From IMG/VR virus record IMGVR_UViG_2778261499_000007: a stretch of 14,225 bases of DNA, one strand, 5' to 3'. The notes beneath the pieces are model-generated. The model saw only the letters and a program-made list of their open reading frames with translations, was not told where the DNA came from and ran no database searches. Numbering within the stretch: position 1 is the stretch's first letter; each line of letters starts with the position of its first letter. A program made the position numbers and the translations under genes. Shown here piece by piece: positions 1 through 14,225 of this stretch. This DNA comes from a virus (taxonomy: Duplodnaviria > Heunggongvirae > Uroviricota > Caudoviricetes).

Positions 1-77
1 CCCCTCAGAGTGGATAGCTGCCAGTGTGGCGTAATTCAGGCCGCTATAGTGCTTTCCGTCATCCCAGCCAACCGCTA
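1..77. repeat. Terminal direct repeat, left copy (identical to 14149-14225)
   Basis: Base-by-base comparison: position 1 aligns with 14149 and position 77 with 14225; position 78 onward is unique. Confidence 0.9.
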
Positions 78-156
78 CACCTTCCATCTGTGAGAGCTCT
101 TTGTGCAGCTTATCCATCATGCGCTTGTCTATGGTGCAATGGACTTTCGGACTCAT
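1..156 (-). CDS. Hypothetical protein, N-terminal part (MSPKVHCTIDKRMMDKLHKELSQMEGVAVGWDDGKHYSGLNYATLAAIHSEG...); continues at 14148->13846 if the unit is circular
   Basis: ATG at 156-154 overlaps the TGA stop of the upstream gene (ATGA, 153-156), suggesting translational coupling. The frame stays open to position 1, and the residues encoded by 1-77 are the same as those encoded by 14149-14225. Confidence 0.5.
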   Translation of the reverse strand, partial: MSPKVHCTIDKRMMDKLHKELSQMEGVAVGWDDGKHYSGLNYATLAAIHSEG

Positions 157-956
157 TTGTTGATCTCCGTGATGTCATCGAGCAACATGTTGGCCTTATC
201 GATCATCGTTTCGTGGAACTCATTCGACACAACAGACTTATCACCTGCGGCAATCTTTCCAGCAGCCTCTCCCTGTGCATATTCCCCGCGATGCTTAGCC
301 CTGGTGGATTTCGTAGCAGCGTTGCCAGCGTTGCTACCCTCTTTAGCACTGTTAACAGCACCCTTTTGCTGTGTTTTGTTCACCTTCTTACTGTTAGTGA
401 AAACTCCGGCATTTTCGACCATCTTCACCTTGAAGGTGCGGAATTCTTCAAAAGTGCAATCAATAGTGATGCAGTCGCCAGAGGAAGAGCTACGCTTAAC
501 TTCACATTTCGTCATGATGAAGTTCTCAAGAAGTCCGGCATCTTCACTAACCAGGCTAACCAGCTGGCGCTTGTCTCTCATTTCCATAAGTGCCTGAACA
601 GCGGCAGCAGGGCGCATAGATTCACGGGGATTATCTGGATCAGTGTTCCGGTCGATGTAGTTCTCTTTCCGGATGATATGAGGGGAAGAGGTGATAATAC
701 CCGTAAAGCTGACAGATTTATCTTTAATGACGGCATGGTCTGACATGGTGGTGCCATCCTCGACCGCATAGCTCGATTTCTCGACAGGGAACGAATAGCT
801 GACATCAGAGATTGAGTCAAAGAAGATAGCCACGTTATCGGTATAGTTGAAGCCATCCATTATATTTTTGTTTTGTGAATATCCCCCACACATAACAGTG
901 AATGCAGGAGATCTCGACTCAGCTTGTTTTGCAGCTGTCAGAGCATCACTAGCCAT
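153..956 (-). CDS. Hypothetical protein, about 267 aa, Lys/Ala/Gly/Ser/Asn-rich C-terminal half; possibly virion-associated (function unknown)
   Basis: ORF-track ORF 153..1010 begins at a TTG; an internal ATG at 956-954 is preceded by GGAGG with about 10-nt spacing, so 956 is the likelier start. Protein-like composition; same strand as the capsid genes. Confidence 0.5.
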   Translation of the reverse strand: MASDALTAAKQAESRSPAFTVMCGGYSQNKNIMDGFNYTDNVAIFFDSISDVSYSFPVEKSSYAVEDGTTMSDHAVIKDKSVSFTGIITSSPHIIRKENYIDRNTDPDNPRESMRPAAAVQALMEMRDKRQLVSLVSEDAGLLENFIMTKCEVKRSSSSGDCITIDCTFEEFRTFKVKMVENAGVFTNSKKVNKTQQKGAVNSAKEGSNAGNAATKSTRAKHRGEYAQGEAAGKIAAGDKSVVSNEFHETMIDKANMLLDDITEINK

Positions 957-1150
957 ATTAAACATGCCTCCAAATTGGTCCACTTCATGGATTTGGCTAA
1001 ACTCGTGCAAGTAGCACTCATCCCGAGGGTGTTAAAGCCAAACCTGCAAAAGATGCAGGCAAAATAGAACTTATCGTTGCCCTGCTTAAAATCTGCAGAA
1101 AATACAGGGCAGTTATTCGTTAGAATCGCTTATAGCTCTTCCCGAGAGCG

Positions 1151-1402
1151 TTATTTTGCAAAACGATTATGGGCATTCAGGGCTTTTTTGCGGTCCTGGG
1201 CTTGTTTGCGTGCAATAAAATGTTCGAAAGTCTCGGCCCAGGTGCATTTATTATATTCACGGTATTTATGCATAGCCTGGCGGCTAACGTCATAGCAGGC
1301 GGCAAATGTGGAGATACGCAGGAATTCCGGCAGATCCTCGTCATCGATATGGATAATATCAAAAGGCACGTCATCACGGTCGCCGTATAAAACAATTTTC
1401 AT
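1151..1402 (-). CDS. Small DNA-binding protein (helix-turn-helix-like segment ISTFAACYDVSRQAMHKY), about 83 aa
   Basis: ORF-track ORF 1151..1411 begins at GTG; the ATG at 1402-1400 is preceded by GAGGTG with 6-nt spacing. The overlapping plus-strand ORFs look like shadows. Confidence 0.4.
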   Translation of the reverse strand: MKIVLYGDRDDVPFDIIHIDDEDLPEFLRISTFAACYDVSRQAMHKYREYNKCTWAETFEHFIARKQAQDRKKALNAHNRFAK

Positions 1403-1436
1403 AAAAGACACCTCAAAAACTTAAGACGGGGATTAT

Positions 1437-1476
1437 GAGTCCTTCCAGGACCTTAGCTAAAGCTAAGCCCTTTGGG
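1437..1476. repeat. Left arm of a 40-bp inverted repeat (partner 4297-4336); itself contains the palindrome CTTAGCT..AGCTAAG
   Basis: The reverse complement of 1437-1476 matches 4297-4336 at about 36 of 40 positions by eye. Confidence 0.7.
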
Positions 1477-1543: not shown

Positions 1544-2578
1544 TTATTTAGCCTTGGCAGCGGCGGCGGTGTTTTTAACACTCACTTTAACCACAACTTC
1601 AGGCATCATGTTCATGAAAGCATAAGAGGATTCAACGAAGATTTCGCGTTTGCCTCTGGACTCTTCCATATACATGAAAGCTTCACGTGCAGCGCCGTTT
1701 GCCAGCTTCAGGTTGCGAGCGCAAGGGCCGAAAAATTGAGTATAAACGCCCACCATATCGCCTAACGCATGCGGCTGGAACTGTGGGACTAGATAAGCAG
1801 TATTCTCTGGCAGACTATCCATTTGCACCACACGCAGGGCTAAGCCCGGAATGCGGAAGGTCGGGAAGCCCGGCAGAATATCCTCAGGGAACATCAGACC
1901 TTTATCGGTAATATTCTGATTGCCGAACAACAGCACTTTACGGAGCAGTTCATCAGTCTGAATTGCAGCAAAGAGCTCAGCACGGCAGAACAGGGTGAAA
2001 CCACGCAGAGCGCGAACGACACCACGCTGTTTAACCTTGCTCAGTGCAACCAGGTCCTGCAGCTGTTTAAGGATATCTTGAGCTAGATCCACTTCTGAAG
2101 TGGTTTGCTGTGCGCCCAGCAGTTCGCACACATTCAGTTCTTTACCCTTGGTGAGGATAATTTTGTTCTCAAAGAGAGCAAGCTGGCGTGCTTCTTCATG
2201 GGTCTGGCGTAAGCCTTCGCCCAGTTGAATAACACGACGAGCGGTTACAGACTCTAAATTCTCTTCGGAATCTTTGCCAGGAACGCGGATACCCTGCCAG
2301 TCAGAAGGATAAATAGCACTTGATGCGGCAGTGAACGCCATATCACCCGTGCCCGTTTCACGCTCATCTGCGGTAATGGTCGCCATCTGTTCACCGTAGC
2401 GCGGATACTGACCGAAAGCGGTTTGTTTCACCTGCCGAACTTTGTCATATTCAAATTTGAAGGTATTGCACAGAGCAGTAGTGTTGAAGATATCCATTGC
2501 TGAAATAATCTGATTATCCAGCGGGATGTCTTTAATCAGACCACACAGATCGCGAACTTCGAATTCTTTCTTAGCCAT
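1544..2578 (-). CDS. Major capsid protein, lambda gpE-like family (HK97-fold), about 344 aa
   Basis: Size and position match lambda E (341 aa), immediately downstream of a 111-aa D-like gene. C-terminal segment KREIFVESSYAFMNMMPEVVVKVSV resembles the lambda gpE C-terminus as recalled. ATG at 2578 is preceded by AGGAGG with 6-nt spacing; the track start at 2584 is a TTG. Confidence 0.65.
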   Translation of the reverse strand: MAKKEFEVRDLCGLIKDIPLDNQIISAMDIFNTTALCNTFKFEYDKVRQVKQTAFGQYPRYGEQMATITADERETGTGDMAFTAASSAIYPSDWQGIRVPGKDSEENLESVTARRVIQLGEGLRQTHEEARQLALFENKIILTKGKELNVCELLGAQQTTSEVDLAQDILKQLQDLVALSKVKQRGVVRALRGFTLFCRAELFAAIQTDELLRKVLLFGNQNITDKGLMFPEDILPGFPTFRIPGLALRVVQMDSLPENTAYLVPQFQPHALGDMVGVYTQFFGPCARNLKLANGAAREAFMYMEESRGKREIFVESSYAFMNMMPEVVVKVSVKNTAAAAKAK

Positions 2579-2589
2579 TTCCAACCTCC

Positions 2590-2925
2590 TTATTGTGCAA
2601 CACGCAAATCGCCATTGCTGGCAGCAATAACAGCGGCTAAGCCGTCTTTATCCACGTAGGCCGGATTGATATAACAGCCTTTGTTGGCAACAACGATAAA
2701 AGCATCACCAACCTCAGCACGTTCTACAACCAGCAGCGGAGTTTTATCGGTGTGCGTTTCTTTAACGAAGGTCTCAACCTCGCCAGCCTCAGTCACCACA
2801 ACAACAGTGCCAGCCGGAATCTCAGCTTTAACTTTGTTTTTAATTTCAACGTCGCGAATACTAAATTGCTCATCTGCGGCGTATGAAATGATGTGTCCGC
2901 GTGTGCGGATAGTCATATCTCTCAT
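2590..2925 (-). CDS. Head decoration protein (lambda gpD-like / DUF2190-like), 111 aa
   Basis: 111 aa, beta-rich with Val/Ala/Gly runs, directly upstream of the E-like capsid gene (stop at 2590-2592, capsid RBS 6 nt later). AGGTGA RBS before the ATG at 2925. Confidence 0.55.
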   Translation of the reverse strand: MRDMTIRTRGHIISYAADEQFSIRDVEIKNKVKAEIPAGTVVVVTEAGEVETFVKETHTDKTPLLVVERAEVGDAFIVVANKGCYINPAYVDKDGLAAVIAASNGDLRVAQ

Positions 2926-3255
2926 TTGATCACCTGCGATTTAAATTAACTCCCCTCAAAGAGTTCCGGTATAACCTCTCAAACCGCGACAGGCTCGGGC
3001 CGAAAAGTTATGCCGGAAATCTAAAGGGGGATTGATATAAGGAGAGGGAGATAGCCCCGCACCGTAGCCAAGCGGGGGCTATTCCACATGGGGAAACCGA
3101 CAACAGTCGGATGATAGTTCACAGTATGGGTTACGGTTACTAGAGAGCACTATCACGAAAGGCACTCCCCCGAATCAGTTCAGGCTGCGGTCACATCAGC
3201 GGGGAAATACCTTTCGGGATAGCTACCCACACAGAAAACCCGCAAAAGAAAACTG

Positions 3256-3264
3256 TGTGGATAA
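3256..3264. promoter_or_regulatory. Perfect DnaA-box 9-mer (TGTGGATAA)
   Basis: Exact consensus match within the 870-bp ORF-free leader upstream of the capsid operon. Confidence 0.25.
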
Positions 3265-3408
3265 CTAGCCCAATAGGAGAATTAATCGACCACTCAACGA
3301 TGATCAGGGTAGTGTTATTTATAGGGCGGCACCGCTACCTGGTCGCCTTTACTTTGGAGGAAAATATGGCAAATCAAGATCTTCTCAAATGATATTGATT
3401 CCATACTA

Positions 3409-3428
3409 TACTGTATATTATATCAGTA
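3409..3428. promoter_or_regulatory. LexA/SOS-box-like site (taCTGTatattataTCAGta)
   Basis: CTGT-N8-TCAG with an AT-only spacer; matches the E. coli SOS-box consensus CTGT-(AT)4-ACAG except the first base of the right half-site. Confidence 0.35.
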
Positions 3429-3775
3429 TTTACTCACATTGTCAACACCTTGATTATATAAATTCTAATAATTAGCGTAGTAACGGTATTTTCAGACCTC
3501 TATCAATCCCATCAATACGTCACCCCCACCCTTTAGATGCATACATCCGACCTACTTTGTAGGCTTGGCGTACTGCCAAGGTCGCAGCTATGCGACTCCT
3601 ATCTATCACCACTTTATAAAGCTTGATAGATATCTTTTGATCAATATCAATGTTTTCCGGGTATTTACCCGGCTATAGTTCGAATCAAGGAAGGGGAGCA
3701 TTGATAGAGACACCCAAAGGGGTGACTGAAAGTCACCTGGCATAGCCAGTGAAAGCACCCAACCGAACAAACAAA

Positions 3776-3790
3776 TCAACTTCTCGCAAA
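3776..3790 (+). promoter_or_regulatory. Conserved 15-nt motif TCAACTTCTCGCAAA, copy 1, immediately upstream of the RBS of the 3802 peptide
   Basis: Identical 15-mer at 4367-4381 and a near-identical copy (TCAACCTCTCGCGAG) at 13473-13487. Copies 1 and 2 sit at the same distance from an SD and ATG. Confidence 0.5.
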
Positions 3791-3801
3791 AGGTGATAGT
3801 T

Positions 3802-3924
3802 ATGGGTATCAAGAACAGTGCCAGCGCATGGCAAAAGGCCAGGTTTCATCACCCACACATTGTTAAGGCAATTGAGGTGGTTGGAGTTTTAGCCCTGATG
3901 TTAGCTCTGTGTGTGGAGGTGTGA
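3802..3924 (+). CDS. Small peptide, 40 aa, with hydrophobic C-terminal segment (MGIKNSASAWQKARFHHPHIVKAIEVVGVLALMLALCVEV)
   Basis: Below the ORF-track size cutoff; translated by hand. AGGTGA RBS with 5-nt spacing; predicted C-terminal transmembrane segment. Confidence 0.3.
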   Translation: MGIKNSASAWQKARFHHPHIVKAIEVVGVLALMLALCVEV

Positions 3925-3925
3925 G

Positions 3926-4006: not shown

Positions 4007-4025
4007 ACAGCATTGAGAGGAGTTT

Positions 4026-4286
4026 ATGACGGGGGCTAAAGATATCAGGAGACTGAGGGAAGAGCTGATAGCTGAAATTAAAGCTAAGGCAAAGCAAATG
4101 GAGATAGCCGCACAAATGGATGTAGCGGAACAGATGTACAAGATGGTTGAGGAGGGAACGCCACGACAGGTTATCGCTAAAACCTTCGGTGTGGGGATCG
4201 CCACCGTGCACAGAAGGCTGAAAGCCTATGCCGACTACCACAATATCGAGAGAAAGGAGGATGGGAGATTTAAGAAGAATAAATAG
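4026..4286 (+). CDS. Small HTH DNA-binding protein (coiled-coil N-terminus, C-terminal HTH GTPRQVIAKTFGVGIATVHRRLK), 86 aa
   Basis: ORF track; GAGGAG RBS; clear helix-turn-helix pattern; the overlapping minus-strand ORFs are low-complexity shadows. Confidence 0.55.
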   Translation: MTGAKDIRRLREELIAEIKAKAKQMEIAAQMDVAEQMYKMVEEGTPRQVIAKTFGVGIATVHRRLKAYADYHNIERKEDGRFKKNK

Positions 4287-4392: not shown

Positions 4393-5103
4393 ATGTTTAA
4401 AGGTCTTGTTGTTACGCTATTGGCTTGCATTGTATTTGGTCCATGGGTGTTAGTAATTGCTTTACCTATATTGCTGATCATGAGCTTAGGGAATGATATT
4501 AAAAAGCTGCATGCACAATATAAGGAGCATCCTGGAGCAGTCATAACAAGTCTGGTTATAGTCGCGGGGCTTATTGGCTGGGTCTACTTCTCTCTTCCCA
4601 CAGGAAATACAACTGCAAATGTAGAAGAGGCGAACGCACAGCATGAAGAAGTGGTTAACGTCGCCGACCTTACATGGGAGGACAGGGTAAAAGCATATAA
4701 ATATATTTATGGTGTGCTAGATTGCGATCTCTCTAAAGATATAGGATGCACAGATAAATACCAGATTCACGCCTGGCTGTGGAATCATGCAGAAAAAGGT
4801 GCTTGCAACCAGATTAAAGTGGCGGTTAACAGTGGGGCACCTACTGGGAAAAATAAAGATGTTCTGACGGTATGGTGCAAGGATGTAAAAGGCAATGATC
4901 GTTGGCTACAGATGCGCCACATGGACGGTGTAAGCATAGAAACTACACGAACGGCTCGATGGTATAACGGTGAACTCGTTCACGAAGCATGGCAGAATAA
5001 CGCCTGGATCACTGAGGGAACACTCCTGAATGTTGATATGGAAGCATTGAAGATGCTTAATGAGATGTACGGTGAAGCCGTAGAAACCTCTCCGATGAAA
5101 TAA
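4393..5103 (+). CDS. Membrane protein, 236 aa: N-terminal transmembrane helices and a Cys-containing C-terminal domain; function unknown
   Basis: ORF track; two long hydrophobic segments in the first 70 aa; several Cys in the C-terminal domain; followed by a strong terminator. Confidence 0.55.
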   Translation: MFKGLVVTLLACIVFGPWVLVIALPILLIMSLGNDIKKLHAQYKEHPGAVITSLVIVAGLIGWVYFSLPTGNTTANVEEANAQHEEVVNVADLTWEDRVKAYKYIYGVLDCDLSKDIGCTDKYQIHAWLWNHAEKGACNQIKVAVNSGAPTGKNKDVLTVWCKDVKGNDRWLQMRHMDGVSIETTRTARWYNGELVHEAWQNNAWITEGTLLNVDMEALKMLNEMYGEAVETSPMK

Positions 5104-5200: not shown

Positions 5201-5250
5201 CCCCTATTTAAGGGGTATTTAATGGGTATTTAATGCCTATTTATTGATTT
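5201..5250. repeat. Phased tandem repeats of TATTTAA at about 11-bp period (4 to 5 copies), plus a second CCCCTATTTA copy at 5144-5153
   Basis: cccctatttaa / ggggtatttaat / gggtatttaat / gcctatttatt / gatttaat; periodicity of about one helical turn. Confidence 0.6.
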
Positions 5251-6486
5251 AATCCGTTTTATGCCACAACCGCCCGGTTGACAGAGTAAGAGAGAGGGTG
5301 TAACCCTTTTTCGTAATACTAATAAAATCAATAGCTTAGCTCAATTGGCCTTTTCTCTGTTTTTGTCAAATTTAACATACCCTAAAAAACTGCAAAATCT
5401 GGCTGCAAGATTATCTGCAGCTGGATTTCTTACACCTCAATTTGTGGTATCACCCTGACTAGTTTGTGCATAAAATGAACAGTTTTTAACATTTCCTCTT
5501 CACCTGGTAACCACACAAAAAGCTAAAAACGAGGCACAGATAATCTTAGAGGCCTGTTTTCTTGTTATCACTCTGGAAACGTCGTAGAAGTGATTTTGAT
5601 GAAAGATGACCTACCCTATTACACCCCCATTTTTTGTTATCACAATTGCATCCTGTGCGGTGTATGGCTGTGTGCTGAAAGCGGTCTTGGGTGTGGGTGT
5701 CAGAAATATCCATTAGCGGTATTAATACCCGTCAGATGTTCGTCTGAGGTGCCAGGCAGGCGCTCCCCCACCTCCCTTTTTTCTTCTAACAATTCTCAAA
5801 TATCACACCACTGCCGACCACGTTACTACTCTGTTAATTCTTAAGCTTTGCTGTATGTTGTGCACATTATTTATTCAGGTGCGTGTACGTAAATTCTGGG
5901 CCTCCTTATCATGATTTTTAAATCAGATTTTGTAGTTCGGTTTCTTAGTGTAGATAAGATCTATTATGTTAAATGCAATTTTCCCAACCCTTCAAATCAA
6001 TGACTTACATGTAAGCATGCACTAACACCCCACACAGCACATTAGACGTATAGATGGCTATATCCCACATTTTTGATTGTTTTGTAGTCATTCCCCTGAT
6101 CATTTAACCAGTATAGTTTGTTCTTTGCAGACCACAAAATCGGAATTTACATCTGATTAACATAATCTGTTAGCATGATCACTATTACCCACACAACAAT
6201 AACCCCATGCAAGACTCTTCAGGCAATTTATCGGCGTGTTGGTGTGAACAGTCTTTCATGTTCTTTATGTTTTCATTGTCCTGTGTGAGGGAAGGATGGA
6301 CTGCCCCAGGGGCCACACTTATGATGCCCGGTCAACATAGCTATTGATAAAATCAACGGGTGTTGATCTGCATATTTCCCACACATGAGAGGAAATCAGA
6401 GCAAAGAGAGAGGAGAGAGGTTTGCTAGTCAAAATAGGTCAATTGACGGCTAATACAGAGTAAAAAATCAGATGCAATCACTCCCC

Positions 6487-6669
6487 ACCTGTTGGGATTT
6501 CCCGCACCTGTATAAGAATACAGTCATACTTTCCCGTTATACGGTCATACACATGATGGAATAACCTGTTGGAATTTCCTACAGGTTTAACCATACACAG
6601 GAGCTAACCTGTTGGAATTTCCTACTACTACCTGTCGGTATTTCCCACAGGTACCTGTTGGAATTTCCC
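6487..6669. repeat. Iteron array (5 copies of ACCTGTTGGAATTTCCY at 6487, 6564, 6607, 6630, 6653), candidate replication origin
   Basis: Near-identical 17-mers; the last three are spaced 23 bp apart; ACCTGT/ACAGGT inverted half-sites; followed by an AT-rich tract (6670-6710) and, 1.3 kb downstream, Rep-like genes. Confidence 0.7.
6508..6523. promoter_or_regulatory. Canonical SOS-box pattern CTGT-N8-ACAG (CTGTATAAGAATACAG) inside the iteron region
   Basis: Exact CTGT and ACAG half-sites with an 8-nt A/T-rich spacer. May partly reflect the iteron ACCTGT/ACAGGT half-sites. Confidence 0.35.
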
Positions 6670-6797
6670 ACACTAATAGATAAAGAGAATAGATCAATAA
6701 AAAGAACTCCCCCTATAATCCCCCAACAAGGGGGGATGGGGAGGGATCAGAGAGTGGGGAAGGTTTTCTAAGGGAAAAGCTTAACCCACAAATGAAA

Positions 6798-7705: not shown

Positions 7706-7915
7706 ATGGCTAAAACCGGACCGATAAGCCAGCTGGTAAACTGGACTACTGACGAAATCGTCGAGAACGTGCTTAAAGGTAACTTTCGAAAAACTTCCGT
7801 TTATGCATTTATTCGTAAACACAAAGGGGAATACCCACATATTGAAGCGGCAATAGAAAAACTTAACTTTATCCGCATTGAGCGTGAGCTGGAAAGATAT
7901 AAACATCTACTTTGA
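7706..7915 (+). CDS. Small hypothetical protein, 69 aa (possible regulator)
   Basis: ORF track; AGGAGA RBS with 7-nt spacing; first gene of the plus-strand block that continues into the Rep-like genes. Confidence 0.45.
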   Translation: MAKTGPISQLVNWTTDEIVENVLKGNFRKTSVYAFIRKHKGEYPHIEAAIEKLNFIRIERELERYKHLL

Positions 7916-7939
7916 TAAATAATCTTGGAGGATCATATT

Positions 7940-8326
7940 ATGGCAAATAACGATGAAAATTTTACTCCCTTTTTTAAACGTTTCATCAAATACACTTTTA
8001 AAAATCCGATTGCAAAAACTGCAACCAATAAAGAAAGATTTCACTTAAATGTGTTGGAGGTAACAATTTATGGTGAAATGGTAAGTTATTCTTTTAAGGA
8101 GGGTGAAGAAATAATTATCTCAGAGCTCTCGACGCAGACATTAGCAGACGATTATGATGTTACAGAGAAAACAGTAAGGTCGGCTATCAAAACATTAGAG
8201 GCTGCAGGTCTGATAAACGTTAAACGAGAACAGGGCAAATCGAATATCTACGAATTGCTAATTACCCCTGATCAGCTTGGCAAGATGTGCGATGAGCAGG
8301 GTATTAGAGAATATTTTATATATTAA
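7940..8326 (+). CDS. Rep-like winged-helix protein, short paralog (about 128 aa); replication-initiator-type HTH
   Basis: Segment ISELSTQTLADDYDVTEKTVRSAIKTLEAAGLINVKREQGKSNIYELL fits the winged-helix pattern of phage/plasmid replication initiators. GGAGG RBS before the ATG at 7940 (track start 7925 is a TTG). Paralogous to the next gene. Confidence 0.5.
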   Translation: MANNDENFTPFFKRFIKYTFKNPIAKTATNKERFHLNVLEVTIYGEMVSYSFKEGEEIIISELSTQTLADDYDVTEKTVRSAIKTLEAAGLINVKREQGKSNIYELLITPDQLGKMCDEQGIREYFIY

Positions 8327-8337
8327 TGGGGGGAACT

Positions 8338-9258
8338 ATGGCAGGAAATAAACTGGGGGCACCTTTTACCCCCTCTTTCGATTTCTTTATTCAGTATGAT
8401 TTTGATAAACCAGTAGCAACAACAATTTCTAATAAAAAGACTGGAACAGTTAAAGAGCGCTTCTATTTAACAGACTTTGAAATGTTGATTTATGGAAAAA
8501 TGGTGGGATTTCATTTTAACGGTGAGGGAATTTATATTTCAGAGCAAAAACTGGCAACTCAACTCAGAAAGGATCGCGGGAAAATAGTAAGCGCTATTAA
8601 ATCTCTGGAAAATGCCGGGCTTATTTCTAAAGATAGCCGGAAAGGCATGTCTAATAATTACAAATTGCTGAAAACCCCTGATCAATTGTTGGATATGTGC
8701 ATTGAGAAGGGCGTAAATATTCCAGAAGGCATCTTAGAGACTTTCGGAAAGACTGCCGCTAAAGTAGAACAGCCTCAGGAAGCCCCAAAACAAGCCACAC
8801 AGCAAGCTAAAAAGGCTAAAGTAGTGCAATTGCCTACCCAAGACACTAAAGCGCCTCAAATTAACGCTGTTAGTGACAAGCCACGCCGGGGCCGTCCTGT
8901 GAAAGATGTCACCGATGGAGGCTGGATCGTCCTGGGTGAGAGTGAGGCTAAAGGCATAATGCGATCACTGTGGGAAAGCAAATACAAAGATTTAAACAAA
9001 CGTCGCCCGATCCTTTTGTCAAAGATTCAGGAGGATTTTTACACCGCAGAAGAGGTAAGCCAACATAAAGGGAAAAGAGAGGGTGAAATCTGGAAACCGG
9101 AAGAATACTGGCATTTAACCAGACCTGTGTTTATTTTTGCAAATAAGCTTATTGGGATGGGATTTGAAATATTGTTGGATAAAACCTGCGGAGATTATCC
9201 CGAAATATTGTGGAGAAATGTTAGAAAAAATAAAAAAGGCATTTTAGAGTTTAAATAA
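8338..9258 (+). CDS. Rep-like replication initiator, long paralog (about 306 aa) with a C-terminal extension
   Basis: N-terminal 120 aa parallels the preceding gene (MA.N...FTP.F...; ...SAIKSLENAGLISKDSRKGMSNNYKLL). The previous stop overlaps an upstream ATG at 8326 (TAATG); 8338 is preceded by a G-rich SD. Iterons lie upstream. Confidence 0.5.
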   Translation: MAGNKLGAPFTPSFDFFIQYDFDKPVATTISNKKTGTVKERFYLTDFEMLIYGKMVGFHFNGEGIYISEQKLATQLRKDRGKIVSAIKSLENAGLISKDSRKGMSNNYKLLKTPDQLLDMCIEKGVNIPEGILETFGKTAAKVEQPQEAPKQATQQAKKAKVVQLPTQDTKAPQINAVSDKPRRGRPVKDVTDGGWIVLGESEAKGIMRSLWESKYKDLNKRRPILLSKIQEDFYTAEEVSQHKGKREGEIWKPEEYWHLTRPVFIFANKLIGMGFEILLDKTCGDYPEILWRNVRKNKKGILEFK

Positions 9259-9306: not shown

Positions 9307-9453
9307 ATGTATGGCGATTTTGATTATTACCTGGAAAAGGAAAAATATTTTGAAGATGAACTATCACAACATTTTTCATATTGGGAAGAATATTGTGGTT
9401 GGTTAGCTGAAGATCCAGCAGATGAAGAAAATGATTCTGACATCCCTTATTAA
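9307..9453 (+). CDS. Small, strongly acidic, aromatic-rich protein, 48 aa (MYGDFDYYLEKEKYFEDELSQHFSYWEEYCGWLAEDPADEENDSDIPY)
   Basis: Below the ORF-track cutoff; translated by hand. AAGGAAA RBS about 7 nt upstream; composition dominated by Asp/Glu/Tyr/Trp. Confidence 0.35.
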   Translation: MYGDFDYYLEKEKYFEDELSQHFSYWEEYCGWLAEDPADEENDSDIPY

Positions 9454-9551: not shown

Positions 9552-10040
9552 ATGTTCAAATCTGATCTTTCTGATTCCCAATTTGAAAAACTGGTAGCAC
9601 TGCAGAAATATCTCCCCAGTGATGATCAACCAACACGACAGGCTAAACACTTATTAGTCGAGGGCTTTACCCCTGAATTCGTGGCGGAATATACAGGCGT
9701 TAAACTTGAGAAAGTCCAAAAACTATATAATGAGTCCTGGAATCCACGGTGTCGAGTTCCCCTCAGTGTCTACAACGAAATAGATAGAGATAGAAATGTC
9801 TTCGAAGATCGCCGCCGCAAATCTCTTTTAATGTGGAATTGTGGGATGAATATTGAAGAGATAGCAAAAGAATTAAAAGTAACCTGCTTTCATATCTGGG
9901 GCTTGTTGAGTGAAATCCTACCACGTAAGGAGCTTAATCAACGTTTGCCTAAGCCCGGTAGTCGTGCTTATCGCGAATTTATATTCATCTACCGCCGCCA
10001 TAGCAATAAAGTCCGGAAAGCAATGGCCCAGAAAGCCTAA
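9552..10040 (+). CDS. Hypothetical protein, 162 aa, with two HTH-like segments (possible DNA-binding or regulatory protein)
   Basis: ORF track; GGAGA RBS; basic C-terminus; HTH-like stretches FTPEFVAEYTGVKLEKVQKLY and MNIEEIAKELKVTCFHIWGLL. Confidence 0.45.
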   Translation: MFKSDLSDSQFEKLVALQKYLPSDDQPTRQAKHLLVEGFTPEFVAEYTGVKLEKVQKLYNESWNPRCRVPLSVYNEIDRDRNVFEDRRRKSLLMWNCGMNIEEIAKELKVTCFHIWGLLSEILPRKELNQRLPKPGSRAYREFIFIYRRHSNKVRKAMAQKA

Positions 10041-10113
10041 GTTTTATCTCTTCGATTTATTTATTTTCGACTCACTTTAACCCCTTCCGGGGCTCTAATT
10101 TAAGGAATTCCAA

Positions 10114-10557
10114 ATGTCTCAAATCGCTAAATTACTATCCCAGGTTATCAAAGCTTTCGACGCTGAAGATTCAAAAGTTCGCCAGGATCTTTTAGATGGC
10201 AAGTTTACCAACACCCTGGCATTTACCCGTGACAAAGAGCACTTCTTAAAACACAGACACCACGCTTTTGCTGAATGCAAGTCCGCTAATGGTGATGTTT
10301 TCTATGTCGATTTGGTGGTTATGGCATGTAGATTGTGGATGATTCAGGACCTTATGCGCCAACACGGTGATGATCCTCTTATCAGCATGTGGAACAGCGC
10401 CCAGGATGGCTTTGTGATTGCTGCCTTATCCAAATCAATGATTGAGGCAGAAGGGGCAAGCCTTCAGAACATGGCAGATCTCTTTGAAATAAGCGTAGGA
10501 ATGATGCAGACCATGCTCCAAGCTGTCAAACCTCTCAAACTGGTTAATCTTGATTAA
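10114..10557 (+). CDS. Hypothetical protein, 147 aa
   Basis: ORF track; AAGGAA RBS with 7-nt spacing; no recognisable motif. Confidence 0.45.
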   Translation: MSQIAKLLSQVIKAFDAEDSKVRQDLLDGKFTNTLAFTRDKEHFLKHRHHAFAECKSANGDVFYVDLVVMACRLWMIQDLMRQHGDDPLISMWNSAQDGFVIAALSKSMIEAEGASLQNMADLFEISVGMMQTMLQAVKPLKLVNLD

Positions 10558-10618
10558 GCTATTGATAAATAAGCACTCCCCATTTTTTTGGGGGGTGCAT
10601 CAATGAGAGGATATGCCT

Positions 10619-11002
10619 ATGAATATTGAAGAAATGATAGTTGAATTCGAAGATGGTGATTTCCTGGAAGATGGGGAGTTTAAATACTCCCGTTTTAAAC
10701 AGGCGTTATTTAGCAGTGAGGATAAACCACACGTTAGTGATCTTAACGACGATGATTTATGTCGTTGGGTATGCACCCGCTTATATGAGGATGGAAAATA
10801 TACAGGCCAAAACTTTCCAAATCTCTATTTCAAAGCACAAACATTTGAGGAAGGGCAAAGAGTGAAAAACCTGGTAGATAAAATGCTTTCAGCCGGATAT
10901 TTGCATAAAGAATTATTAAATCCTAAAGCTGAAAGCAAGCGCCATTATATTTTTGTGTGGTCTGTGGGGGATAAGTGCCCACTGAAGCGTAAAGGCAAAT
11001 GA
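10619..11002 (+). CDS. Acidic hypothetical protein, about 127 aa; possible tail assembly chaperone by position upstream of the tape-measure gene
   Basis: GAGAGGA RBS is correctly spaced for the ATG at 10619 (track start 10613 is too close to the SD). Acidic composition and tight packing against the next two genes. Confidence 0.4.
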   Translation: MNIEEMIVEFEDGDFLEDGEFKYSRFKQALFSSEDKPHVSDLNDDDLCRWVCTRLYEDGKYTGQNFPNLYFKAQTFEEGQRVKNLVDKMLSAGYLHKELLNPKAESKRHYIFVWSVGDKCPLKRKGK

Positions 11003-11003
11003 T

Positions 11004-11189
11004 ATGAATACCTACGAAAAGATTTATCAAAAATTAAAAAGTGATAACAATGCTCCCGTCATCAAGGGCGGGGCTTCTTCCTCTGGTGACCTCTCAATCG
11101 AAGAGCTTGCGGAGAAATATAATATTGATAAAGAGGCCCTGAAAAGGGCTATTTCATTATCAAAATCTTTAAGACAAGGCGAGGTATAA
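11004..11189 (+). CDS. Small hypothetical protein, 61 aa, immediately upstream of the tape-measure gene
   Basis: ORF track; ATG 1 nt after the previous stop; its stop lies 1 nt before the tape-measure ATG. Confidence 0.35.
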   Translation: MNTYEKIYQKLKSDNNAPVIKGGASSSGDLSIEELAEKYNIDKEALKRAISLSKSLRQGEV

Positions 11190-11190
11190 A

Positions 11191-13293
11191 ATGGCAATGA
11201 AGGAAGTAGCCAAGCTAACAAACGTTATTTACTGGGATTCTGATAAATCCAGCTGGCGAAAAGAAGTTAAACGGCTTGAGGATTATAAAAAATCCTGGAA
11301 GAAAGCTACCGACGATATAGCTAAAGCGGATTTTAAATCTAATCAGGCTGTGCTCAGAACACAAAGAACACGCGCTAAGGTGGAAGAGCAGATCGCCAGA
11401 GCACAGAAGAAACAACGTGCTCAGGCTGTCAGCCGTCTGACCGGGGGCAATAATCCGGAGCTCTCCTCTATGCGCAAGTTCTATCAGCAGCAAGCCAGAG
11501 AGGCCGCCAGACAACAAAAACTGTTAGATCGTAGTGTTGGAGATGTTCAGCACAGAAAAGCACGTGTAGGGGCCAACAGTGCACGAATCAGCAGCATGTT
11601 TGATGGCTCCCTGGTTGCTCAGTTCCAATCCAGAATTCAGAGAGTTAATGCTGATTATGCTAAAGGGGCTATTAACCTGCAGACCTATAATCAGAAAATG
11701 GCCCGACTCAGATCTGAAATGAAGATGGCAACAGCAGAGGCCGGAAAATTTCAGAGCAGACTAGACAAAGCTGCGGTAGCAGGATCAAAGCTGCATGACA
11801 ACCTGGGCAAACTCAACTCCACACTAGGCAAGATAGCTATTGGCCTTACTGCCGCTGGCTGGGGTGTTCAGCGTGCTGTTAGTGGTGCTATGGGTAGCCT
11901 TGCAGATCGCAACAGTGCGTATTTCAGCTTAATGGCCCAGAACAAGGATGATAAAGAAAAAACTGATCAGCAGATGGCCTACGTCAAAAGAATCTCTTAT
12001 GACTACGGGATGGATCAGCGTGAGACTGAAGGCGGCTTTATGCGCTTTGCTGCAGCCACACCAAGCATAAAAGAGAAAGATAAGCAGGATCTCTTTGAGG
12101 CTATGGCGATTAAAGGCCGATCAGTGGGTGCTACCGCAGACCAACAGAACAGGGCTATCGTTGCACTAGGACAAATATATAGCAAGGGCGGTCGAGTGTA
12201 TGCGGAAGAGCTTAAGGGCCAACTTTCTGAAGCCCTGGCAGGTTCTCAGGTAGATTTCACTAAGGCCGCTATCGATGCCGGAGTCATCAAGAAAGAGGAA
12301 GAATTTAATAAAGCCCTTGAAGATGGCAAGATCACCATGGACAAGCTTCTTCCTTCTCTGGTGAAAATCTGGGGTGCTGCAAAAGAAACTAAAGCTTTTG
12401 CTGAATCCATGAAACAGCCAGAAGTAGCAATGCAGCGCATGAAAAACAGCTTTAACGAGCTGGCGATTCAGTTTATGGGTGTTGTGGATCCTGCAGATGG
12501 CGTTATTAGCTTATCTGAATCTCTAATCTCCATCTTCGAAGACCTCACCACTGATATGGACGGCAGCGGGAGCGCGGCAAAACAGTTCGGTGAGGCAGTC
12601 GGGGCTGCCATGCGGGAGATCATGTATTGGGTAGGCTTCGCTAAGGGATATATCGAGATTAAGGCTAAAGAGTTCGGCATGACCAGTGAGGAAGTCGGAG
12701 GATGGATCGGCAAGCTGGTTGTTGCAATCGCAGGTCTGAAGATCATCGGCACACTTCTTTCTCCGTTTACCGGACTGATTTCACTTGTCACACAGCTGAT
12801 AGCCTTGTTAGGTAAAATCCCTGGTATGAGCAAGCTTCTGGCTTCTGCCTCAGGTGGAACGGCAACAGGAGCAGCGGTCATCAGTGCAGGATCTAACGCT
12901 GAAAGAAGTTTCATTGATGGCAAGACGCAGGAAATGAGTAAGGAGAACTCAAAACAGGGTGCTTTGTTTGAGCTGGGAAGATTTGTTAGCAATGCTGGCG
13001 CACTATTCACACCTGGCGGTGATACTGGTCCTTTGTTCGATCAGGTCAGAGGCTGGTTTAATAAAGGGCCAACATTGACAGTAGACACTGGCATCAGACC
13101 AACACCAACGGGTGGCATAGCTATCCAGAATGGTGGATATCAACCAGTCCAAGTAAATGTAGCCCCACAAGGTGAGATTTCCGGCAAATGGGAGATAACC
13201 ATCGATGAGGGGGGAATTGCCAGGGTAATTCAGAAGGAAGTCAGCGATCAGTTGGATTGGAAAGCCACGCAGGAATCTAACCAGCTTTTCTAA
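11191..13293 (+). CDS. Tail tape measure protein-like, 700 aa
   Basis: Long coiled-coil N-terminal region; segment ADQQNRAIVALGQIYSKGGRVYAEELKGQLSEALAGSQVDF matches the conserved tape-measure domain pattern (SKG...EEL..QL.E.L.G); long hydrophobic helices at about residues 505-560; Gly-rich C-terminus. Confidence 0.7.
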   Translation: MAMKEVAKLTNVIYWDSDKSSWRKEVKRLEDYKKSWKKATDDIAKADFKSNQAVLRTQRTRAKVEEQIARAQKKQRAQAVSRLTGGNNPELSSMRKFYQQQAREAARQQKLLDRSVGDVQHRKARVGANSARISSMFDGSLVAQFQSRIQRVNADYAKGAINLQTYNQKMARLRSEMKMATAEAGKFQSRLDKAAVAGSKLHDNLGKLNSTLGKIAIGLTAAGWGVQRAVSGAMGSLADRNSAYFSLMAQNKDDKEKTDQQMAYVKRISYDYGMDQRETEGGFMRFAAATPSIKEKDKQDLFEAMAIKGRSVGATADQQNRAIVALGQIYSKGGRVYAEELKGQLSEALAGSQVDFTKAAIDAGVIKKEEEFNKALEDGKITMDKLLPSLVKIWGAAKETKAFAESMKQPEVAMQRMKNSFNELAIQFMGVVDPADGVISLSESLISIFEDLTTDMDGSGSAAKQFGEAVGAAMREIMYWVGFAKGYIEIKAKEFGMTSEEVGGWIGKLVVAIAGLKIIGTLLSPFTGLISLVTQLIALLGKIPGMSKLLASASGGTATGAAVISAGSNAERSFIDGKTQEMSKENSKQGALFELGRFVSNAGALFTPGGDTGPLFDQVRGWFNKGPTLTVDTGIRPTPTGGIAIQNGGYQPVQVNVAPQGEISGKWEITIDEGGIARVIQKEVSDQLDWKATQESNQLF

Positions 13294-13395
13294 TGTCCAC
13301 TCTGTGGATTTGAGTTCTACTCAAACCTGCATAGCAGGCACTGATATTGTGATCAAAATCAATAAGTTAGCCTGACCGGACAAACTCCAGGCAAG

Positions 13396-13426
13396 AAAAA
13401 AGCCCCTAAGTGTTAACAAAGGGGCT
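13396..13426 (-). terminator. Rho-independent terminator for minus-strand transcription (AGCCCCT-N12-AGGGGCT followed by six T on the minus strand)
   Basis: Perfect 7-bp stem at 13401-13407 and 13420-13426; the A-run at 13396-13401 on the plus strand gives the U-tail on the minus strand. Confidence 0.55.
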
Positions 13427-13472
13427 CTTCTCCGGTATCCTTTTGATGCGGGGCAAAACCTGCTAACAAAAA

Positions 13473-13487
13473 TCAACCTCTCGCGAG
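13473..13487 (+). promoter_or_regulatory. Conserved motif copy 3 (TCAACCTCTCGCGAG), in the loop of an 11-bp inverted repeat (13458-13468 and 13493-13503)
   Basis: 13 of 15 identical to the motif at 3776 and 4367; not followed by a credible ORF, which argues for function at the DNA or RNA level. Confidence 0.4.
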
Positions 13488-13845
13488 ACTAATGTTAGCA
13501 GGTTGCCGGAAGGTAAGTCAACTCCGGTCTATAAACCTTAAAGCGACTATAAAATCGCCCCGCCAATTGTGATGATCCGACCTTTGAGGCGGGTCCGGTG
13601 CCCAGGGGGTGCAGTGATGCACAAACCAGGCAACGATAAACAGGCTAACAGTGATAGCGGCGCTCAATCAGCGCACTAAATCCTAACCAGTCCGGGAAAG
13701 AGGCTGGCTCTATCGACCGCTCATGCACGGGACAATGCATACCTGATAAAGGATTCTCACAAGGGACCAATCGCGAGAAAGAAGTGGAAAGGGGCTGATT
13801 TGTGGTGTATCACTACGGCCTCAAAAGACATCCTATTGTCTTTTT

Positions 13846-14225
13846 TCAGCCTCTACCTACATTTGACCAATACTTGATTGCACCGATCAAATCATCATAG
13901 TGGCGCATTGCATCATTGAAGCCTTTATAGCTTGCCCATTGTGGTGAAACCTTGTTATTGCTGAATTGCCCACTAATCAGGATAGTCTCCAAAATGTCGG
14001 CATATCGCTTACCAATACGCTTTCTGACGGCCTCAGAGCTCCCACCCTTTACGATTGCATTAATCAGGGCTTTTGTGTGTCTCAGGCTCTCATAGAGCAT
14101 TGCAGCGTGGGCAGATTCCATAAAGGAGCGCTTAGGCAGATCACCCCACCCCTCAGAGTGGATAGCTGCCAGTGTGGCGTAATTCAGGCCGCTATAGTGC
14201 TTTCCGTCATCCCAGCCAACCGCTA
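13846..14225 (-). CDS. Hypothetical protein, C-terminal part (...MESAHAAMLYESLRHTKALINAIVKGGSSEAVRKRIGKRYADILETILISGQFSNNKVSPQWASYKGFNDAMRHYDDLIGAIKYWSNVGRG); same gene as 1-156 if circular (about 152 aa total)
   Basis: The frame is open from the window end down to the TGA at 13846-13848; the upstream portion is supplied in frame by 156->1 through the 77-bp junction. Confidence 0.5.
   Translation of the reverse strand, partial: AVGWDDGKHYSGLNYATLAAIHSEGWGDLPKRSFMESAHAAMLYESLRHTKALINAIVKGGSSEAVRKRIGKRYADILETILISGQFSNNKVSPQWASYKGFNDAMRHYDDLIGAIKYWSNVGRG
14149..14225. repeat. Terminal direct repeat, right copy (identical to 1-77)
   Basis: Same 77-mer as the window start; consistent with a circular contig written with overlap, or a direct terminal repeat. 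Confidence 0.9.

Follow-up and report, generated by a model that had tools for sequence, protein, structure and literature searches.

The window analyzed here is the whole 14,225-nucleotide stretch of the viral record IMGVR_UViG_2778261499_000007. Its first 77 bases are identical to bases 14149-14225 by sequence self-comparison; 77 is a common assembler k-mer size, and the identical ends indicate a circle of 14,148 bp closed by assembly overlap. The circle carries two convergent operons, each starting at a near-identical consensus sigma-70 promoter. The structural genes and the regions around them are the following.

1..77, no strand: terminal overlap, identical to 14149-14225, marking closure of the 14,148-bp circle
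13846..14225, minus strand: C-terminal and middle part of a neck/tail-completion-type protein of 152 aa (phrog_222, 2.3e-28)
1..156, minus strand: N-terminal part of the neck/tail-completion ORF, start codon 156-154 (ORF call on the circularised sequence)
153..1010, minus strand: tail tube initiator, a Dit-like "baseplate" protein (PF21821, 2.5e-25; phrog_5197, 4.8e-108)
1151..1411, minus strand: conserved 83-86-aa protein between the capsid and tube initiator genes, with an HTH-like stretch by eye
1544..2584, minus strand: major capsid protein, 346 aa, lambda-E/HK97 type (phrog_29, 5.5e-21)
2590..2925, minus strand: head decoration protein, 111 aa, gpD/SHP fold predicted (AlphaFold model and Foldseek), adjoining the capsid gene
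2926..3410, minus strand: long structured 5' leader of the capsid/tail operon (RNA fold z-score -5.85)
3417..3445, minus strand: promoter P1, directed at the capsid operon; exact match to the sigma-70 consensus (TTGACA-17-TATAAT, extended -10 TG)
11191..13293, plus strand: tape measure protein, 700 aa (phrog_5255, 2.3e-153)
13294..13845, no strand: conserved convergent intergenic region (89-100% four-way identity)

The element is a complete, self-replicating 14.1-kb circular E. coli plasmid and not a piece of a larger phage. Among 5,426 complete E. coli genomes, seven carry a collinear element, each time as a circular plasmid of 13.3-13.7 kb, with three copies of it in one 39.6-kb record; chromosomal copies numbered zero. 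These complete assemblies rule out a fragment of a larger phage, identify the host as E. coli and the state as plasmid, and, together with the 77-bp closure and an iteron/Rep replicon, bear out the original prediction of a small self-replicating unit. The 77-bp overlap taken alone could come from a repeat, as would be the case for an assembly artefact or a wrongly circularised phage fragment. That explanation has a negligible probability given independent complete circular plasmids that share its gene order and over 400 recorded member sequences, whose contigs, among the matches listed, are mostly ~13.4-14.3 kb. No conjugation or mobilisation genes were found in the element, and the five copies of the plasmid in PLSDB are all typed non-mobilizable; yet the isolates come from human, bovine, pig and chicken sources in five countries, so a transfer route is needed.

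The head genes had been read as a lambda-type pair, D-like decoration plus E-like major capsid, and profile and structure searches upheld both calls. Besides the phrog_29 match of the capsid protein itself, its homologues in sister elements (29% and 51% identical) match Pfam PF03864 Phage_cap_E. The decoration protein had no sequence-family match. Its AlphaFold (AF2) model (pLDDT 81.5, pTM 0.74) found phage 21 SHP (1td0) and lambda gpD as best PDB matches in Foldseek (E 6e-4, TM 0.57-0.61), and entries named "head decoration protein" rank top in BFVD. Its gene lies directly upstream of the capsid gene, the arrangement found in lambda and rV5. Modelled fold and gene adjacency thus identify a gpD/SHP-type decoration protein, whose trimerization and capsid binding are predicted.

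The original gene inventory was right about capsid, decoration and tape measure, and missed two further tail genes, those for the tube initiator and the neck/tail-completion protein. The tape measure call is supported by the phrog_5255 match and by PF20155 in homologues; the protein is 25% identical to Vequintavirus tape measures over 77% of its length (tblastn against phage Alma, 5e-18). The tube initiator ORF encodes 285 aa, of which the likely start leaves 267 aa (153-956). It matches the "tube initiator" of PDB 9cuy_K (E 1.4e-34) and is 50-52% identical to proteins of E. coli Vequintavirus phages (tblastn against Alma, 1e-61). The neck/tail-completion ORF spans the circular junction; its RefSeq homologue, WP_001682506.1, is encoded by 459 nt, and the protein is 44.7% identical to Alma gp054 (tblastn 8e-35) and 99% conserved in seven plasmids. 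With homology to rV5-like gp060, gp062 and gp054, these three genes constitute a tail core of Vequintavirinae type.

Vequintavirus comprises rV5-like lytic myoviruses of ~137 kb. It provides the nearest phage relatives of four structural proteins of the plasmid (tube initiator, neck, capsid and tape measure), whose best phage matches were always rV5-like; for the tube initiator and neck protein, the nearest are specifically phages that infect E. coli. The corresponding phage proteins are capsid gp050, neck gp054, tape measure gp060 and tube initiator gp062, and the capsid protein is 25% identical to its Vequintavirus counterparts over 97% of its length. The same decoration fold adjoins the capsid gene on its upstream side in Vequintavirus and in the related PhiTE (PDB 9cul/9cuy/9mjn), and GC content is 44% in both element and phage. 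Unlike the phage module, the element has its genes reshuffled into two convergent operons within an iteron plasmid; identities are just 25-52%, and ~200 further phage genes are missing. All five structural genes are under purifying selection (dN/dS 0.01-0.28 overall; capsid 0.04-0.11, tape measure 0.10-0.28, tube initiator 0.11-0.21, neck 0.01-0.08), which argues that they are functional.

Sequence comparison suggests that the plasmid family is old and coherent. Two sister elements, L013 and L019, have only 40-58% protein identity to the element and keep its gene order on contigs of 14.2-14.9 kb. When we searched with the tube initiator, the longest contig measured 13-15.2 kb in 16 of 56 protein clusters and 18-20.5 kb in 7 of 56; the other clusters consisted of shorter fragmentary contigs or longer phage-like contigs. 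The elements' tape measures form their own group (28-40% identity versus 22-27% to phage versions), as do their capsid proteins (29-82% versus ~25%), and a sister family of 19-20-kb elements has the replicon and tail genes in common.

These relationships could also be expected if the plasmid were the satellite or partner of an unsequenced helper, perhaps a distant relative of the rV5-like phages that is temperate or a phage-plasmid and whose capsid and tape measure are much closer to those of the plasmid. The separate grouping, the mere 25% identity of capsid and tape measure to any known phage, and the 19-20-kb family would agree with such a helper. Nevertheless, we consider it improbable: searches of 50,697 phage records and of a collection of 5.8 billion proteins yielded no closer phage capsid, none of the 5,426 complete E. 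coli genomes contains terminase or portal DNA of Vequintavirus type, and the tube initiator and neck protein point to Vequintavirus phages of E. coli itself.

The replicon and the rightward operon contain the following features.

6485..6671, plus strand: iterons, five copies of ~21 nt, ACCTGTTGGAATTTCCCAC (repeat analysis)
7361-7389 and 7552-7580, plus strand: two sigma-70 promoters ahead of the rightward operon
7425-7574, plus strand: hydrophobic ORF of 49 aa, ahead of the rightward operon
7630-7654, plus strand: terminator-like hairpin, ahead of the rightward operon
7706..7915, plus strand: conserved 69-aa protein, gene 1 of the rightward operon (dN/dS 0-0.33)
7925..8326, plus strand: extra winged-helix domain, 133 aa (PF13730/GntR-type wHTH, phrog_270; repeat D3)
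8326..9258, plus strand: Rep replication initiator, 310 aa, winged-helix, lambda-O-like (phrog_270, phrog_678; wHTH families)
9307..9453, plus strand: acidic 48-aa peptide ending DSDIPY (WP_001682500.1)
9552..11189, plus strand: four ORFs of 162, 147, 129 and 61 aa, conserved and specific to the family, immediately 5' of the tape measure gene

The tandem iterons and the winged-helix Rep, whose allele co-varies with the iteron sequence, characterize an iteron-type theta replicon; an iteron/Rep replicon had been proposed. Rep is hypervariable, 38-92% identical or replaced among sister plasmids, and the iteron sequence changes together with it (L005 and L009 differ in both). The 133-aa winged-helix domain shares 79% identity with the N-terminal part of Rep in L005, and its block is gapped in the sister plasmids; this comparison marks it as a partial second Rep allele carried only by IMGVR_UViG_2778261499_000007. 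The DSDIPY end of the 48-aa peptide, which is annotated in six sister plasmids (L001, L004, L005, L007, L008 and L021), resembles the C-terminal tail of SSB, and the L009 Rep ends in DSAIPY. Conservation of the four ORFs ahead of the tape measure gene is 93-100%, apart from orf61, for which three sister records show 59-62% identity; dN/dS values of the four are 0-0.66, mostly at most 0.26, and the top values rest on a handful of substitutions. The orf162 protein contains two HTH modules, with weak HTH matches, and has homologues confined to this plasmid family; its structure model had no significant fold match.

Between promoter P1 and the iterons lie four further features.

3706..3753, no strand: 48-bp hairpin cassette matching an intergenic site in Vequintavirus genomes
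4026..4286, plus strand: resolvase-type HTH protein (HTH_7), 86 aa, lacking a catalytic domain, candidate regulator (PF02796, 3.4e-6)
4393..5103, plus strand: variable cargo slot, here a 236-aa protein with no family match; replaced in most sister plasmids
5226..6224, no strand: 1-kb block with CCCACAC motifs and no convincing ORF (90-98% four-way identity)

The cassette is 88-90% identical over 52 bp (3704-3755) to sites in 53 Vequintavirus/rV5-like records, is contained in 0 E. coli chromosomes, and is the only phage DNA match to the element. A non-coding cassette common only to these plasmids and Vequintavirus genomes points to past DNA contact with the phage. It is precisely missing in L007 and L012 and lies in frame within the Rep linker of L009; because about half of the plasmids lack it, it cannot be an essential packaging site.

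Other non-coding sequence is also well preserved. The operon leader at 2926..3410 is 93-99% identical in close plasmids, P1 and the plus-strand promoter at 7552-7580 have 42 nt in common (inverted repeat I2), and the block at 5226..6224, which has no Rfam match, is at least as well conserved as most coding genes. The region at 13294..13845 is the site at which variant L010 has acquired resistance genes, strAB and genes of a Tn10-type tetracycline-resistance region (tetR). The small protein encoded at 1151..1411 has no family match in Pfam or PHROGs; its conservation among the plasmids is 93-99%, and the L012 and L019 versions share 51% and 38% identity with it, respectively. An incomplete virion gene set, with ~34% of the element outside the ORF set used, could mean that the element is what remains of a decaying ancestral phage or phage-plasmid, a cryptic plasmid with idle structural genes. 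This degree of conservation of non-coding blocks, the strong purifying selection on all structural genes, and the retention of gene order and contig size by ~50%-diverged lineages make a remnant very improbable.

The cargo slot bears on the main rival explanation, in which the element is a defence plasmid acting by assembly interference: its diverged virion proteins would co-assemble with or titrate rV5-like parts and poison virions, and the plasmid itself would remain unpackaged. The 236-aa protein has a hydrophobic N-terminal stretch and, by sequence inspection, is putatively membrane-spanning; on the same side of the element, L019 instead encodes a T5orf172/DUF723 nuclease-like protein. In favor of interference, the phage proteins of which the plasmid encodes strongly diverged homologues are precisely the ones that build multi-subunit assemblies, the plasmid genes are under purifying selection, and mobile elements are known to defend by interfering with tail assembly (PMC11364771). 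However, five structural genes including a matched decoration-capsid pair exceed what a decoy needs, and interference alone leaves the ~14-kb contigs across ~50%-diverged lineages and the spread of a non-mobilizable plasmid unexplained. PADLOC returned no significant match for 10 ORFs, and satellites also interfere with their helpers, so the two readings are not exclusive. We regard interference without packaging as unlikely.

The element had also been predicted to lack packaging and integration genes, and none of its ORFs matched a terminase, portal, protease/scaffold or integrase when scanned with Pfam, PHROGs and PADLOC. Only five ORFs are at least 200 aa long (tape measure 700, capsid 346, Rep 310, tube initiator 285 and membrane protein 236), the last being the largest that is unassigned. 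The sole recombinase-like match is the 86-aa HTH_7 protein, which lacks the catalytic domain; at the equivalent position L015 has a full 188-aa resolvase. Neither sheath, tube, baseplate wedge, fibre nor lysis genes were found with Pfam and PHROGs, and we identified no packaging signal, small terminase, helper-sensing gene or induction circuit in the element, where ordinary sigma-70 promoters precede the structural genes.

Consistent with the earlier claim, this gene set fits none of the P4-like, PICI, cf-PICI or PLE definitions, whose defining features were absent in Pfam, PHROGs and genome searches. All four types integrate, and the element has no integrase domain and no chromosomal copy in 5,426 genomes. 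Like cf-PICIs, it is a small element of compact, uniform size encoding its own major capsid protein, and tail dependence on a helper is expected. However, cf-PICIs are chromosomal with an integrase, encode portal, protease, adaptors, small terminase and HNH but no tail genes, and use temperate helpers, whereas this plasmid has capsid and decoration genes, no portal, protease or terminase detectable with Pfam or PHROGs, three tail-core genes, and homologies to a lytic myovirus. The PLE of Vibrio cholerae resembles it in size (~18 kb versus ~14 kb), in having its own Rep and origin, and in its tie to a large lytic myovirus (ICP1, ~126 kb, versus rV5-like phages, ~137 kb), with capsid down-sizing expected. 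PLE differs in integrating by a serine recombinase, in having no capsid gene of its own but taking the ICP1 coat protein, which TcaP remodels, and in lacking a tape measure, a tube initiator and any sequence similarity to the element; the large serine recombinase, RepA-type initiator and TcaP families were not detected in the element, and its host is E. coli. P4, the satellite of P2, can likewise persist as a plasmid, has its own decoration protein (Psu) and needs helper packaging and tail genes, but it has an integrase, an alpha primase-helicase, Sid and the P2 cos site and no capsid protein or tail genes; no PHROG or Pfam family match to the alpha primase-helicase or to Sid/Psu/Delta was found in the element.

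The original suggestion of a phage-plasmid does not hold. Phage-plasmids of the P1, N15 and SSU5 types also unite a plasmid replicon and phage structural genes in a single extrachromosomal molecule, but their gene sets for virion, packaging and lysis are complete and their genomes several times larger than 14 kb, whereas this element has five structural genes only and lacks most of the virion set and the lysis and packaging modules. To our knowledge, tailed-phage satellites so far are chromosomal islands (P4 also a plasmid), nearly all of which exploit temperate phages. A 2025 review names pDolos, an inovirus satellite, as the only phage satellite for which plasmid status has been demonstrated (PMC12282955). 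pDolos is an autonomously replicating plasmid, as is the E. coli element with its inferred satellite status, but it replicates by rolling circle, is packaged by a filamentous phage and is without tailed-phage structural genes.

Taken together, we propose, with a probability of about 0.5, that the element belongs to an E. coli plasmid family, of which our literature search found no description, whose members act as plasmid-resident satellites of rV5-like (Vequintavirinae) myoviruses. The homologies make rV5-like lytic phages a concrete candidate helper, a link absent from the original prediction, and we infer that the plasmid is packaged into particles and transferred. Speaking against packaging, a scan of 2.9 million viral contigs in IMG/VR did not turn up the capsid gene. 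In an uninfected cell the plasmid would replicate from its iterons, with the two convergent operons probably held down, the structured leader on one side and the terminator-like hairpin on the other. Upon rV5-like infection, plasmid capsid and decoration proteins would use the helper portal and scaffold/protease to form a shell with room for ~14 kb; with 25% identity to the helper capsid, the fit with portal and scaffold is uncertain. The helper headful terminase would fill this small shell from plasmid concatemers. Vequintaviruses package by headful and have circularly permuted genomes, a mode that suits plasmid multimers. The plasmid's tail-lumen core of tape measure, tube initiator and tail-completion protein would be built into the helper sheath, tube and baseplate; we know of no satellite that carries a tape measure, which leaves this step without precedent. 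The particles would carry the plasmid into new cells, probably cutting helper yield. In known satellites, a capsid-volume limit yields a constant genome size across deep divergence (PMC12772148), and the constant size across ~50%-diverged lineages is what such a limit would lead us to expect here.

We tentatively speculate, at somewhat less than even odds, that these plasmids represent a new satellite class, extrachromosomal and never integrating, which parasitises strictly lytic rV5-like myoviruses. Such satellites would build their own small shell from a private capsid/decoration pair on the helper portal, place their own tape measure, tube initiator and tail-completion protein in the helper tail, and move a non-mobilizable plasmid, sometimes with resistance genes, in chimeric virions. 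If this is true, a plasmid with both capsid and tail-core genes would be a new satellite architecture, and a satellite-encoded tape measure a new form of virion hijacking. The system would be an experimentally convenient E. coli counterpart to Vibrio PLE/ICP1. It would also supply a transfer route for one of many E. coli plasmid families that have no known route, including the strAB/tetR variant. Vequintavirus phages have been proposed and tested as biocontrol and therapeutic agents; phage therapy would then be affected, since resident plasmids could blunt these phages or be spread by them.

The terminal 77 bases of the window were identical at its two ends in a repeat search, so that on closing it forms a 14,148-bp circle; the GC content was 44%, and one additional ORF was seen only after circularization. 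Megablast of the whole unit matched no phage record. It matched five PLSDB plasmids, all typed as non-mobilizable by PLSDB, and 7 of 5,426 complete E. coli genomes carried the family, each time on a plasmid and never on the chromosome. The plasmids of these seven genomes were 91–95% identical to the window and collinear with it, and six of the seven measured 13.3–13.7 kb. Hosts of the carrier isolates were humans, cattle, one feral pig and one chicken; the countries of isolation were Chile, the USA, Japan, South Africa and China. The element is a real plasmid, and the possibility that the unit was created during assembly is excluded. The seventh of these records, L021 (NZ_CP043822.1; 39,610 bp, “complete plasmid”), consists of three head-to-tail 13.5-kb units that are 66–71 small indels apart, and may be either a true multimer or an artefact of long-read assembly. 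A 30-kb draft contig (L010, NTNY01000053.1) has the same backbone with an insert at 13452-21041, placed in the intergenic region where the neck and tape measure genes converge and carrying aminoglycoside phosphotransferases of the strA/strB type along with an IS-type transposase and genes of the tetR region. The cluster of the capsid protein has over 440 members, with listed contigs mostly of ~13.4–14.3 kb; an IMG/VR scan with the capsid protein found no relative.

The genes lie in a leftward and a rightward operon, and the region between the operons also holds long stretches without a convincing ORF. The ORF set used spans ~66% of the element, a low share for DNA of phage origin. A tRNA scan of the window found no tRNA gene, and an Rfam scan at E<=1 gave two chance-level matches and no credible family.

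Gene and feature content of the circular element
Leftward operon, gene 1: 111-aa protein (D-like)
Leftward operon, gene 2: 346-aa major capsid protein (phrog_29, 5.5e-21)
Leftward operon, gene 3: 86-aa protein
Leftward operon, gene 4: 285-aa Dit-like protein (PF21821, 2.5e-25; phrog_5197, 4.8e-108)
Leftward operon, gene 5: 152-aa neck/tail-completion-type protein, spanning the circular junction (phrog_222, 2.3e-28)
Inter-operon region: 86-aa resolvase-type HTH protein
Inter-operon region: 236-aa putative membrane protein
Inter-operon region, 6485-6671: iterons, 5 x 21 nt
Rightward operon: 69-aa protein
Rightward operon: additional 133-aa winged-helix domain
Rightward operon: 310-aa lambda-O-like Rep
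Rightward operon, 9307-9453: 48-aa acidic peptide
Rightward operon: four conserved ORFs of 162, 147, 129 and 61 aa
Rightward operon: 700-aa tape measure protein (phrog_5255, 2.3e-153)

The original prediction, of a self-replicating element that encodes its own capsid, had named an iteron/Rep replicon and a tape measure, and both are borne out by the iterons, the Rep and the PHROGs match listed. It had also proposed a lambda-type head pair. For the D-like 111-aa protein, sequence-family support was not found, and an exhaustive HMMER search returned only five representative clusters, indicating a narrow family. A structure model built from a seven-sequence alignment (pLDDT 81.5, pTM 0.74) had as its best PDB matches in Foldseek phage 21 SHP and lambda gpD (E 6e-4, TM 0.57–0.61), followed by decoration proteins from PhiTE, Bas63 and YSD1, and its top BFVD matches were “head decoration protein” entries, which supports the decoration call. 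The E-like label of the capsid protein, itself a phrog_29 match, is supported indirectly, because homologues in sister elements that are 29% and 51% identical to it match PF03864 (Phage_cap_E). To these genes our analysis adds two tail genes that had escaped the prediction, encoding the Dit-like protein (tube initiator) and the neck/tail-completion protein.

Searches of Pfam, PHROGs and PADLOC matched no ORF to a terminase, portal, protease/scaffold or integrase, as predicted, and none of the PADLOC models was significant against the window ORFs. All unassigned ORFs are 236 aa or shorter. The conserved 162-aa ORF gave no sign of being a hidden small terminase: its AF2 model reached a pTM of 0.48 and had no significant Foldseek match, only a weak sigma-region-4/GerE-like HTH resemblance. 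Taken as a set, the genes do not provide the defining features of P4-like, PICI, cf-PICI or PLE satellites, in agreement with the misfit first claimed; nor do they provide those of phage-plasmids, and that label is not retained.

The structural proteins point to a particular group of phages. In tblastn searches of 50,697 phage records, the best matches of the capsid and tape measure proteins had ~25% identity over 97% and 77% of the query, respectively, and the top-ranked ones were Vequintavirus records (rV5-like large lytic myoviruses of ~137 kb), including rV5-like genomes under Campylobacter names. Of the proteins of phage vB_Eco_Alma, gp054 shared 44.7% identity with the neck protein (8e-35) and gp062 50.2% with the Dit-like protein (1e-61). 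Identity of the Dit-like protein was 50–52% to E. coli-infecting Vequintavirus and 35–47% to Klebsiella, Salmonella, Cronobacter and Erwinia relatives; among solved structures it matched the PhiTE “tube initiator” (9cuy, 1.4e-34) and Phi92 gp135. A profile search of PDB sequences with the neck protein gave no match. The best-supported reading is that the element is a plasmid-resident satellite of rV5-like lytic myoviruses, for which we infer encapsidation, the identity of the helper and induction. Vequintavirus terminase and portal DNA was absent from all complete E. coli genomes in a search for a resident helper, which fits a helper that is strictly lytic and non-resident. Vequintaviruses have been reported to use headful packaging and to have circularly permuted genomes (PMC8407724, PMC13211470). 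That the actual helper is a phage not yet sequenced is a possibility.

A DNA link to the same phages came from a sensitive blastn search of the non-coding DNA, which gave a single match. In 53 Vequintavirus/rV5-like records, an intergenic site within a 2.5-kb CDS-free gap flanked by convergent gene blocks matched window 3704-3755 at 88–90% identity. The 48-bp cassette (window 3706-3753; 4001-4052 in L006, an 8-kb Vequintavirus locus; 2752-2801 in the sister plasmid L009) has two small hairpins, one of which differs compensatorily between the plasmid and phage copies. It was common only to the plasmid family and Vequintavirus genomes, and none was found on E. coli chromosomes. Because it is precisely missing in sister elements L007 and L012 and lies in frame within the Rep linker of L009, it appears to be mobile or exchangeable rather than an essential site. 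The cassette shows that Vequintavirus and the plasmids exchanged DNA in the past; it could itself be a mobile mini-element, or else a site where a protein binds. The heptamer CCCACAC (usual form CCCACACA) was found 13 times in the window versus 1.0 expected, mostly within 3226-6937, and 6 times versus 0.8 expected in the L006 phage locus (4339-5561), where four of the six copies fall in the 2.5-kb non-coding gap that holds the cassette site. The heptamer partly overlaps the iteron 3' end.

The family extends well beyond the close plasmids. A tube-initiator search gave 56 protein clusters at 41–99% identity, several labelled E. coli; the longest contig measured 13–15.2 kb in 16 of the 56 and 18–20.5 kb in 7, the remaining clusters having shorter fragmentary contigs or longer phage-like ones. 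Two diverged elements, L019 (14,201 bp) and L013 (14,910 bp), keep the gene order of the window at just 40–58% protein identity, and a third, L015 (15,187 bp, E. coli), carries the tube initiator and the tape measure together with a D-like gene, a capsid gene of the Phage_cap_E family and a full-length resolvase. A 19–20-kb type (L016 and L017, E. coli, 19 kb; L020, CAAFXS010000077.1, 20 kb) has the tube initiator and tape measure in common; L016 and L017 also encode a neck-protein homologue, HNH and Lambda_Kil genes, and L020 a related Rep. A capsid homologue was not detected in these three. The only match to the tube-initiator profile among GTDB species representatives was a 20-kb contig of this type binned into a “Clostridia” gut MAG, which is probably misbinned, since its DNA is 67–87% identical to the E. 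coli 19-kb element. Element tape measures are 28–40% identical to one another and 22–27% to phage, and element capsid proteins 29–82% and ~25%, each forming a separate group; for tube initiators and neck proteins, the distance between elements and phages is about that between element lineages. Judged by these distances, the plasmid family is old.

Across seven plasmids, conservation was 91–100% for the structural genes and for the four ORFs of unknown function, with two exceptions: the tape measure is 67% identical in one plasmid, and orf61 59–62% in three records. Pairwise dN/dS of the five virion genes (capsid, decoration, tape measure, tube initiator and neck) was 0.01–0.28. We take the structural genes to be functional, and decay of phage-derived genes is disfavoured as an explanation of the element. 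Two stretches without a convincing ORF, 5226-6224 (90–98%) and 13294-13845 (89–100%, both four-way identity), were conserved at least as well as most protein-coding genes, and had no Rfam match. Among the seven plasmids, Rep and the content of the slot for the membrane protein are exchanged or replaced, the iteron sequence switches together with the Rep allele, and Rep alleles and iteron types recombine between plasmids. Only the window has an extra truncated Rep N-terminal domain (7925-8326) upstream of the full-length Rep (8326-9258); it belongs to a different allele, 79% identical to that of sister plasmid L005, and accounts for ~400 bp of the window's extra length.

A perfect sigma-70 promoter, P1 (3445-3417, minus strand), points towards the capsid operon. 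The 485-nt leader from P1 to the decoration and capsid genes (2926-3410, minus strand) had an RNA fold z of -5.85 versus shuffled sequences; it is 93–99% identical to the window in close plasmids and unalignable in diverged lineages, and a covariation test found 1 compensatory pair versus 7 broken pairs. The rightward operon is headed by a 42-nt near-copy of P1 (7552-7580) and a second related promoter (7361-7389), with a terminator-like hairpin downstream (7630-7654). Vequintavirus structural genes have ordinary extended -10 sigma-70 promoters of the same type, so that promoter type does not discriminate and no phage-specific switch was identified.

Several smaller features were also noted. 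Between the two rightward promoters lies a conserved 49-aa hydrophobic peptide (7425-7574; WP_157794903.1 in sister plasmids), which could be a small membrane toxin or addiction module. The 48-aa peptide at 9307-9453, represented by one protein accession in six sister plasmids, is very acidic and ends in DSDIPY, and the alternative Rep of L009 (2183-3094) ends in DSAIPY. The C-terminal tail of E. coli SSB is DDDIPF, and this likeness suggests recruitment of SSB-binding replication proteins. Twenty-five nucleotides of the rightward-operon leader (7604-7628) are 88% complementary to 9285-9309, at the RBS and start of the acidic-peptide gene, and could exert long-range or antisense translational control. 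A ~45-nt palindromic element after the capsid gene (1437-1481) and after the HTH_7 gene (4292-4336), with a partial copy in non-coding DNA at 6911-6928, looks like a bidirectional terminator or REP-like element. An invertible segment between the two full copies was rejected: the arms are self-palindromic, the element occurs a third time in part, and every plasmid is collinear with the others.

We found no such element described in the literature searched on rV5/Vequintavirinae satellites and on plasmid satellites with capsid or tape-measure genes. A 2025 review recognizes a single plasmid as a demonstrated phage satellite, its helper being an inovirus, and notes that for many plasmids of E. 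coli no route of transfer is known (PMC12282955). The main rival explanation is that the structural proteins serve defence by interfering with phage assembly, which is compatible with the satellite reading. As a plasmid-resident satellite, the element would make the capsid shell from its own proteins and contribute the core of the tail lumen, made up of the tape measure and the proteins presumed to sit at its two ends; portal, scaffold/protease, terminase, sheath, tube, baseplate and fibres would be taken from the helper. Its ~14-kb size, kept across deep divergence, is as expected from the capsid-volume limit on genome size noted for known satellites (PMC12772148).
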